This document shows, piece by piece, positions 20,114 to 26,504 of a DNA stretch of 64,000 nt. The position numbers and the translations under genes were made by a program. The first letter of the stretch is position 1. Every line of letters begins with the position of its first letter. The stretch is from Octopus vulgaris (taxonomy: Eukaryota): assembly GCA_951406725.2 (NCBI GenBank), contig OX597825.1, forward strand, positions 82,336,001 to 82,400,000, read 5' to 3'. The notes below the pieces were generated by a model. That model made no database searches. It worked only from the letters and a program-made list of their open reading frames with translations, and was not told the origin of the DNA.

Positions 20114-20542
20114 TGTATATATGTGTGTGTGGGAGTGATGAGTATGTGTATGTATGCATTCATGGGCAGGTATATCTATGAATGCATACTTACACACACA
20201 TGCACACTCACACACAGATAGAGATATGCTTTCGGTCAACAATGGAGAGATATAGGCAAAAAAAATAACAACAAAGACTAATTAAATCTTTGCCTATACT
20301 TCTCCGTCGCATCTGTTACTTATTATCATCAGTATCAGCATCACTGTCATCGCCATCGTCATCACAGTAATTACGACACGAAGTTAGTTATATTTATTGT
20401 GACTTCTGGAAAAATGTTCTTGTGGAAGTCCTAGTATTGTTTTGTTTCGGTGCGTGTGTTTATAAATTCTTTTAATCCTAGAAAAATTACTATTTTAAAA
20501 TCTCACAACCAGAGTTATTCAGCAACAGTACTTTGAGTAAAG

Positions 20543-20669
20543 ATTGTTTGCCAACATAACATGGCAGTCCTGGTTTAGGATGAATGTTGCTGTAATTTAG
20601 CCCCAGGAGACATTGTTTGCCAACATAACATGGCAGTCCTAAGCCAGGACTGCCATGTTATGTTGGCAA
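20543..20669. repeat. 29-bp direct repeat plus inverted third copy
   Basis: attgtttgccaacataacatggcagtcct at 20543 and 20612; inverted aggactgccatgttatgttggcaa at 20646. Confidence 0.9.
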
Positions 20670-23986: not shown

Positions 23987-24156
23987 TTGTGTGTCTGTGT
24001 TTGTCCCTCCACCCATCGCTCTTGACAACCGTAACTTTGAGGTAAGGCAAAACAGACCAATAGAATAAGAACGAGGCTTACTTAGACTAAAGGCGGTGCT
24101 CCAGCATGACCACAGTAAAATAAATGAAACAAGTAAAAGAATGAAAGAAAATATAA

Positions 24157-24196
<40 letters not shown>

Positions 24197-24201
<5 letters not shown>

Positions 24202-24392
24202 CTATTATGCAAAAGTGTCGTAAGTCCAGAATGTTGCTTTTTCAGAAACCGAAAAAGTAGTTTCACCATTCCATAGCAAAACGGTTGTACTACACTTTGA
24301 TAATATTTGATATCTTGGCATCTGAAGCAGCTGGAGATACGATAGTTTGTCCAATAGAACCGGCAATTGCAAGCAAAAATAAATATTGAAAA
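24197..24392. repeat. ~195 bp dispersed repeat, copy 1 (copy 2 at 25436-25632)
   Basis: Shared tgatatcttggcatc.gaagcagctggagatacgatagtttg and colinear flanks. Confidence 0.85.
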
Positions 24393-24461
24393 GAAAACGC
24401 ATTTGGCCAAATTTGGATGTGCAACAGACCAACATATTTACAACTGTGTATGTATTGTATA

Positions 24462-24855
24462 TCTTTATATATAAATGTAAGGTTGTGTGTCTGTCTCCTA
24501 CGATTTAGATTCCTAACTACTCCCACATTTTGCGGTGCAGTTTAACCAAAACCGGGCATCTTATAGTCGTGATTCATATCGAGCCCTTCTGGGTATTAGC
24601 GCGCGTCTACGATGAGTCTACGATTTAAAAAAAAAATTACCATCATTTTTTCCATTTTAATGCATTTTTCGCTATTATATAAGGGAAGTAACTCTCTAAA
24701 AATGTCTACGATGAGTCAACGATTTTTAAAAAAATTACCATCATTTTTTTTTCCATTTTTAATGCCTTTTTTGTTATTTCTGGTTATAACTCTCTAAAAA
24801 ATGTTTATATAGTTATTTCCCTTACAAACCCGAGCAACGCCGGGCGATACTGCTA

Positions 24856-24856
<1 letters not shown>
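24462..24856 (+). mobile_element. Non-autonomous Helitron
   Basis: 5' TC after A (a|tctttatatataaa), 3' hairpin cccgagcaacgccggg then CTAG|t; 3' part shared with 58213-58595. Confidence 0.85.
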
Positions 24857-24897
<41 letters not shown>

Positions 24898-24899
<2 letters not shown>

Positions 24900-25377
24900 C
24901 AATAATAATTCTCTAAATGAGTTATAGACAGTGACTGCTCCGTAATATAAGGGATATTAGCCAACCGAATATGGCTAGGGACAGGGCAGGGTGGTGGGGG
25001 TGTCGGTTGGCTAATATCCCTTATATTACGGAGCAGTCACTGTCTATAACTCATTTAGAGAATTATTATTGCTGTCGAACGGATTTTCGAAATCAGTAAA
25101 TGTATTTACTAGAAAATCCTTATATGTATCTTGCAAAGTTGGTCGTTCATCGAGAAGCGATGCCTACCACACGTTGATAATAGGCAACACACCTTGAAAC
25201 CTAGGTCCGTGTGTGGTATCGGCTTCTTGGTGAGTGATCTCCCTTTGCAAGATAAAGGACGTCGTGATGACGTCAGGCCTATCTGGTGACGTTGATGTTC
25301 GCCTGGGGCTAAATGCAACAGTGACACCCCCACCACCCTGCCCTGTCCCTAGCCATATTCGGTTGGCTAATATCCCT

Positions 25378-25384
<7 letters not shown>
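24898..25384 (+). mobile_element. Retrozyme-like element family 1, copy 2 (356-bp monomer, 26-bp terminal redundancy, inverted 5' piece)
   Basis: tcggttggctaatatcccttatatta at 25003 and 25359; 24898-25004 is the exact reverse complement of the end-to-start junction; flanked by (TA)n on both sides. Confidence 0.85.
25168..25213 (+). ncRNA. Type I minimal hammerhead ribozyme, U3-A8 variant
   Basis: cacacg-TTGATAA-t-agg-caacaca-cct-t-GAAA-cctagg-TC-cgtgtg. Perfect 6-bp stem I, palindromic stem III ACCTAGGT, GUC site. Confidence 0.8.
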
Positions 25385-25437
<53 letters not shown>

Positions 25438-26504
25438 CGTTGTTATTATGCAAAACTGTCTTGTGTCCGAAACGTTGATTTTTCAGAAAACGGAAAAATA
25501 GTTTCATCGTTCCATAACGAAACCGTTGTGCTACACTTTGACAATTTTTGATATCTTGGCATCCGAAGCAGCTGGAGATACGATAGTTTGACCAAAAAAA
25601 CCGGCAATTACTAGCAAAAATATATATTGAAATGGAAACGTGGAGGAACAGACACAGACACACAAATATATATATACGATGGGCTTCTTTCAGTTTCCGT
25701 CAACCAAATCCAATCACAAGGCTTTGATCGGCCCGAGACTATAGGAGAAGACACTTGCCAAAGGTGTCACGTAGTGGGACTGAACCCGAAGTCATGTGGT
25801 TGTGAAGCAAGGTTCTTACCACACAGCCACGCTTGCGCCTGTATATATTTATTTTATCTATAACTTGTTTCGGTCATCAGACTGCGGCCAGGCTGGAGCG
25901 CCTCCTTAAAGGGTTTTAGTCAAACTAATCGACCACAGGACAAATTTTCTTTATTAGCCTGGTATTTATACTATCGGTGACCTTTGCCGAACTGTTAAGT
26001 TACGGCCACATAAACACGCCACCAGTGGTTGACATGCGTTGGTGGTGGACAAACACAGACACACAGACACTCATACCGAAGCACACAAATATACATACAC
26101 ACACACACACAGACTTGATAAGTGCCAACACACGAAATACTCGGACCTGGAGTCACTCTGTTGCTTCTGCTAAATATTAATAAAAAAAAAATACATACTC
26201 ACACACACACATTTACACATGCATACCTACATACATGTGTTTGTGTGTTGTATGTGTTGTGTTGGGGTCCGGTGTGGGTGTGCGCCGACTCCCCAACGGA
26301 ATCTAAGCCTGCCAAATGACATCGTGTCATGCGTAGATCTCATCACCGATAAATCATTCATTATTATCTTCCAACGGTTATCAGATCTGTCACCCATATT
26401 CACCTATTCCTCCCACCCCAACACTTCGCGGTATCATTATTTCATCACCAACTTCTCTATTGAAATTCTTTATGTTTATATCACCCTTGTGGCCAATATA
26501 AAGC

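Follow-up and report, generated by a model that had tools for sequence, protein, structure and literature searches.

A 64,000-nt stretch of the Octopus vulgaris genome (assembly GCA_951406725.2, contig OX597825.1, positions 82,336,001 to 82,400,000; hereafter the window) carries an insertion that is best read as a very young member of a widespread family of non-coding 356-nt hammerhead repeats, of the non-LTR retrozyme kind known in animals. We favor a mechanism in which young insertions of this family arose by Penelope-type twin priming into (TA)n from one RNA, likely circular, through a borrowed reverse transcriptase (RT)/endonuclease.

Layout of the window copy and its predicted ribozyme

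The insertion consists of two arms joined by their 5′ ends, with both 3′ ends pointing outward into (TA)n (Table 1). Unit positions are window positions minus 25002, and the phase of the 356-nt monomer is arbitrary. A preliminary description of this DNA had reported a non-coding 356-bp unit followed by a repeat of its first 26 bp, and both are present, the direct repeat (25003–25028 and 25359–25384) being 100% identical at a spacing of 356. The 5′ inverted piece that it followed across the end-to-start junction of the unit for 71 bp is a single 107-nt minus-strand arm covering unit 321–356–71, and the insertion into (TA)n is borne out by tract on both flanks (24857–24898 and 25378–25437). Inverted arm sequences pair 24898–24968 with 25003–25073 (71 nt) and 24943–25004 with 25323–25384 (62 nt), both at 100% identity, and because the arms are identical wherever their sequence overlaps, we consider the copy very young. 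The unit had been drawn as starting at 25003; the repeat there is real, but 25003 is a random 5′ truncation point rather than a natural start. The natural fixed ends of the copy are unit 26 (25384) and unit 71 (24898, on the minus arm), which had been missed and are the two fixed reverse-transcription starts that bound the known Penelope ‘tail’. The longest ATG frame of the circularized unit is 62 aa and its GC content 45%, so that it is non-coding and falls in the retrozyme range of 150–450 bp and GC <50%. The monomer is also highly self-paired relative to shuffles, with z −4.9 when folded as a linear and −5.3 as a circular molecule.

Table 1. Features of the insertion, its flanks and its predicted hammerhead, in window coordinates.
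Feature	Position	Strand	Basis or remark
(TA)n target tract, left	24857–24898		Flanks the L arm
L arm, 107 nt, unit 321–356–71	24898–25004	−	Fixed long end (unit 71) at its 3′ terminus, abutting (TA)n
2-nt overlap, meeting point of both truncated 5′ ends	25003–25004		Arm mapping
S arm, 382 nt, unit 1–356–26 (full monomer plus unit 1–26)	25003–25384	+	Fixed short end (unit 26) at its 3′ terminus
356-nt monomer	25003–25358	+	Arbitrary phase; 45% GC; folds far better than shuffles
45-nt ‘tail’, unit 27–71, between both fixed ends	25029–25073	+	Conserved in sister families
Predicted long rod extending ribozyme stem I	25127–25254	+	Contains 7/11 recurrent A>G sites
Predicted type I hammerhead	25159–25220	+	Alignment of relatives, covariation
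Hammerhead stem I	25159–25164/25215–25220 and 25168–25173/25208–25213	+	Predicted fold
Hammerhead core	U3 (25174), A8 (25179)	+	Predicted
Hammerhead stem II, on a U.U mismatch	25182–25184/25192–25194	+	Predicted
Hammerhead stem III, palindromic	25199–25206	+	Predicted; predicted cut after C25207
(TA)n target tract, right	25385–25437		Tract itself spans 25378–25437

The hammerhead lies where the preliminary description had placed it, with proximal stem I at 25168–25173/25208–25213 and C17 at 25207. A search of the window against Rfam gave zero matches at the gathering score, the motif matching HH9 weakly and below threshold (19 bits, E 0.056), and support for the hammerhead therefore comes from covariation, tested on relatives. 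Specifically, we aligned 18 natural monomers from the window family, its 84–93% identical sisters, a 71% identical family and one older family; over 21 pairs, 92.6% of cells were paired, and 10 of the 21 pairs had changed on both sides. Slid controls paired at 26–52%, and 0 of 500 shuffles reached the observed pairing or covariation score, a count that is no probability because shuffles ignore the relatedness of the sequences. The 3–8 core pair was UA in nine monomers, UG in five and CG in four, and U3–A8 is a natural covariant reported to be active in vitro (PMC3088659). Stem III occurs in three different sequences across the alignment, all of them palindromic, which fits dimer cleavage by analogy to that demonstrated for axolotl ribozymes (PMC7229834). 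These patterns show that a type I hammerhead fold is conserved in the family, with self-cleavage as its predicted activity.

In the 2.8-Gb genome (227 contigs), an exact 20-mer from the unit had 108 matches and the ribozyme pattern 307; the 1459 first-look candidates should not be read as a copy number. We analyzed 139 of 143 insertions, comprising 226 outer arms, after dropping one duplicate (L272, of L271) and three nested or complex loci (L099, L053 and L067). L271 and L272 are near-identical insertions with common flanks, 11 kb apart on contig C30, and probably represent a segmental duplication. Insertions entered this sample as best hits or through a motif match, which biases it toward long young copies; the within-insertion variant and editing tallies use an earlier set of 83, minus two or three of the nested or complex loci. 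The family is dispersed and non-coding, with sisters at 84–93% and relatives down to ~71% identity. The window copy carries one ribozyme only; tandem ribozymes are seen elsewhere in the family, which includes homogeneous multimer loci and arms of up to 1266 nt. Related retrozyme families contribute three older copies to the window, at 30123–30481 (two-armed), 9327–9678 (with a canonical C3–G8 core) and 20498–20652. Directly left of the TA tract is a different repeat (24461–24856) with a 3′ hairpin and a CTAG end, which we take to resemble a non-autonomous Helitron; it has matches at 19 of 350 loci, its 3′ end being fixed. Yet another repeat, which starts at a TA tract, is present in two 86%-identical copies (24151–24399 and 25392–25640).

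Fixed 3′ ends and the RNA template

The 226 outer arms end at two places in the unit, 113 at unit 22–26 (S) and 113 at unit 63–86 (L), 87 of the latter at unit 71. (TA)n adjoins 211 of 227 S/L 3′ ends and, by flanking the insertions, masks any target-site duplication from being read. The 5′ ends are instead scattered over the unit and not fixed, and the copies have no fixed terminal repeats. Two-armed insertions almost always combine one end of each kind: 87 of 92 are S+L and 0 are S+S, the exceptions being one L+L (a three-piece copy) and four with a shortened outer end outside both windows. Where two pieces meet, 36 of 47 junctions overlap by 0–7 nt. In the 71%-identical family, whose S end is not TA-like, an eye count gave S+L at the aligned positions for 14 of the 15 insertions with two arms. 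An older, commoner sister family (L199–L228; 2607 first-look candidates) has the canonical core and the same L end. Our search of the open-licence PMC and bioRxiv literature found the one-start-per-arm rule only in qualitative form. In vitro, the Penelope-like protein Poseidon of Anolis cut and extended both strands of AT-rich DNA and started at two internal RNA sites bounding the tail (PMC11167929). The S and L ends, the inverted truncated arm and the AT-rich target match this biochemistry, and by that analogy we are highly confident that mobilization was of the Penelope type. Retrozyme identity and Penelope-type mobilization, both proposed in the preliminary description, are thus supported by the family ends, the S+L rule and ribozyme covariation.

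To compare the arms, we scored 18 polymorphic sites in 80 insertions. Differences amounted to 2/358 between tandem passes of the same arm and 10/615 between opposite arms (12/973 pooled), versus 32049/100326 (32%) between insertions. Six private variants were common to two passes and 110 occurred in one pass only, the latter as expected from later mutation; passes inside one insertion differ by 1.3–1.8%. Among 84 simple two-armed copies, 16 have arms that each contain sequence absent from the other, so neither arm is a DNA copy of its partner. Arms of the exceptional insertion L025 disagree at four sites, with a haplotype switch between unit 232 and 253, away from the cut site, which points to a second template or to conversion. 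Both arms of an insertion were, we conclude with good confidence, copied from one template.

The predicted cut site is crossed by 159 of the 226 arms, at least twice in 43 and at least three times in 9, with a maximum of four crossings. For the window copy, the earlier proposal that the template exceeded one monomer stands, but its circularity does not follow from this copy alone, because a 427-nt linear RNA with one uncut ribozyme would yield both arms. For the family, we think that the template was probably a circular RNA: the ribozyme has been kept by selection, yet its site is always intact in the template, and cutting followed by re-closing would be the simplest explanation. Some arms span exactly one round or exactly two (L005, L010, L025 and L193, with L261 and L263 doing so within microhomology), and 10 arms stop at unit 23–28 against 4.06 expected (p 0.009), although seven other 6-nt windows are more extreme; these exact-round stops looked strong in the first 83 insertions and weaker over the 226 arms. 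Under the favored mechanism, a multimeric copy would be transcribed, paired hammerheads would cut the RNA to monomers and a host ligase would close them. A Penelope-like protein, probably a dimer, would then nick both (TA)n strands; the two DNA ends would prime on a single RNA molecule, at unit 26 and unit 71 respectively, after which each enzyme would run a variable length, at times several rounds, and the truncated cDNA ends would join via a few matching bases. We give an even chance to the more specific possibility that a single ribozyme-made circle is copied by one Penelope-type dimer from two set points simultaneously, one per DNA strand.

The strongest competing explanation keeps the twin priming but takes as template an uncut linear multimer from an earlier tandem insertion, with the ribozyme serving another step. 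Homogeneous multimer loci could act as linear templates, and tandem arms are common (43/226 with at least two cut sites). Ribozyme cleavage was dispensable for insertion by Anolis Poseidon in vitro, where unprocessed RNA was the main substrate (PMC11167929), which leaves uncut multimers a measure of plausibility, and the excess of exact-round stops loses its significance once all windows are considered. Arrays would only shrink per generation unless some step regenerated them, however; up to four cut sites are crossed in a covariation-conserved ribozyme, and ribozymes of a similar kind cleave efficiently in dimeric form (PMC7229834); nor do 5′ ends pile up as a transcript start would have them do. 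On balance we regard this explanation as unlikely. A single 303-nt contig, from read data consisting of assembled contigs from eight runs of uncertain type, covers 25051–25353 across the cut site with two differences and is equally compatible with a circle, uncut RNA or DNA; a motif derived from the reads had 0 matches in the genome.

Copying of ribozyme-cut linear monomers, with the enzyme jumping end to end, would also build seamless multimers, and the two haplotypes of L025 are what a jump might leave. The L025 switch lies at unit 232–253 and not at the cut, however, and cut linear monomers are disfavored because 5′ ends show no excess at the cut site (2 observed versus 3.7 expected, with no pile-up) and 218 of 219 crossings are free of gaps, making this route very improbable next to the circular template.

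Variants that recur in at least two insertions are biased toward A>G over T>C (11 versus 3, binomial p 0.015). Nine of the 11 recurrent A>G sites fall in predicted A–U pairs, and unit 231 is changed on six haplotype backgrounds. Private variants split 13:13, and because the contrast with the recurrent ones gives Fisher p 0.10 and polarity was taken from the majority base, the signal is only suggestive of RNA editing.

Coding Penelope-like families in the same genome

Two intact young coding families insert into (TA)n, each with a minimal hammerhead. The first encodes a 775-aa protein with RT and GIY-YIG domains (Pfam) and follows the S+L rule at all 21 loci with both arms in view, of 23 chosen; a script scored 20 of the 21 as S+L, and the last pairs an S end with an L end that carries a single base change. 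Its minimal hammerhead, read by eye, has the U.U base of stem II. The second (L159–L167; for example L162, 268–3968) has two ORFs. The upstream frame, of 479 aa, matches no Pfam family above the cut-off, and the other is an RT/GIY-YIG frame of 781 aa; the minimal hammerhead of this family has a U3–A8 core as in the retrozyme, and its tail is ~36 nt. The coding-partner search (GIY-YIG plus protein) returned 6136 and 18082 first-look candidates, mostly unscored. A 41-nt match beside one coding family was rejected as a partner link, being a separate older retrozyme copy, and a pair spaced by 5.9 kb on contig C24 (L249, G000:C24:20244500-20254400) turned out to be a sister-family copy interrupted by an element whose LINE-like frame is 1134 aa long. 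At L062, L179 and L321, retrozyme copies share TA tracts with coding Penelope-like ends, marking shared insertion hot spots. Locus L346 (G000:C1:27840000-27849999) holds the 4271-nt coding Penelope-like element in head-to-tail copies. Comparison of two full units there showed them to be identical, other loci differing by 3–11 substitutions, a pattern suggestive of several rounds of copying along a 4.3-kb RNA.

The end structure of the retrozyme is the same in kind as that of the coding families, and partial tandems of such a kind have been described (PMC8557442), as would be expected if the unit were the pseudo-LTR (pLTR) of a coding Penelope-like element and the insertions its truncated copies. 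Among 80 coding Penelope-like loci, drawn from few of the families in the genome, no pLTR resembled the unit, those of the two intact families included, and no 3′ sequence was shared with it. Each monomer is preceded by a further monomer rather than by an ORF, in runs of up to 3.5 copies, and no retrozyme copy has an RT/GIY-YIG ORF fused between two units as its pLTRs, the arrangement of an autonomous element. Pieces of Penelope ORF occur near only 5 of 139 insertions, with varying position and strand and at least 398 nt away except at L179, where the piece lies 194 nt away across the TA tract, and a shared 5′ flank was seen in only one pair among 46 single-piece copies. A pseudo-LTR origin is accordingly slightly less probable even than copying of cut monomers. 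Least probable of all is that the inverted arm and tandem passes were made at the DNA level (fold-back, conversion or unequal exchange) after a single-arm insertion, which would account for variants common to one insertion but leaves unexplained both S+L in 87/92 and mutually exclusive arm content in 16/84, strong homogenization being unlikely because passes in one insertion still differ by the 1.3–1.8% given above.

Relation to known systems and meaning

Retrozymes as a class, their circles (known from coral, mussel and axolotl) and their link to Penelope have already been published, and circle-templated copying by Penelope-like enzymes was proposed for metazoan non-LTR retrozymes by Cervera and de la Pena 2020 (PMC7229834). 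Like those elements, the window family is a self-paired, non-coding repeat of 150–450 bp (350–390 bp in mussel) with GC <50% and a type I hammerhead, and it has the U.U base of stem II and short stem III of axolotl HHR_Amex2 (PMC7229834). It differs in host group and in its U3–A8 core, and the dispersed two-armed (TA)n insertions with two fixed ends are not among the descriptions in the available text of that study; cleavage and circles were demonstrated there, whereas for the window family both are predicted. Li, Clavereau and Pollet 2026 (bioRxiv 10.64898/2026.07.22.740005) treat animal retrozymes as non-autonomous Penelope-like sequences and, from 31 vertebrates, three insects, one coral and no mollusc, favor local DNA-level tandem growth of pLTR pieces. 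The window family is likewise non-autonomous and co-occurs with Penelope-like elements; unlike theirs, it yielded no pLTR homology in the 80 coding loci, and its tandems look made at insertion.

With Penelope-like elements (PMC11167929, PMC8557442) the family shares an AT-rich target, two internal starts, an inverted 5′-truncated copy and a tail at one end, the Penelope tail often being present at one end only (PMC8557442). It differs from Poseidon and its relatives in lacking an ORF, in its 45-nt rather than 30–40-nt tail and in its extended rather than minimal ribozyme. Non-autonomous Chlamys elements such as MRC1 are similarly non-coding and form head-to-tail multi-copy insertions through Penelope-type enzymes, but belong to green algae and have 3′ ends in common with their partners, and canonical hammerheads are reported to be absent from that clade (PMC8557442). 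Our literature search, in open-licence PMC and bioRxiv papers, found no cephalopod retrozyme; Dfam or Repbase may already hold a repeat entry for the family.

The return of animal retrozymes to the genome has so far only been proposed (PMC7229834; Li 2026), and the origin of the tandem, inverted and tail structures of Penelope elements is named as open in the available text of PMC8557442. The window family offers a substrate that is both short and young, with start sites predicted to the nucleotide and an unusually clear insertion footprint, and because the same genome holds two intact candidate enzymes, the model is testable in vitro. If one dimer does copy a single circle, the Penelope tail and the inverted arm would both be explained, the insertions would be genomic evidence that animal retrozyme circles are real templates, and A-to-I edits made on the RNA would be written into the genome.
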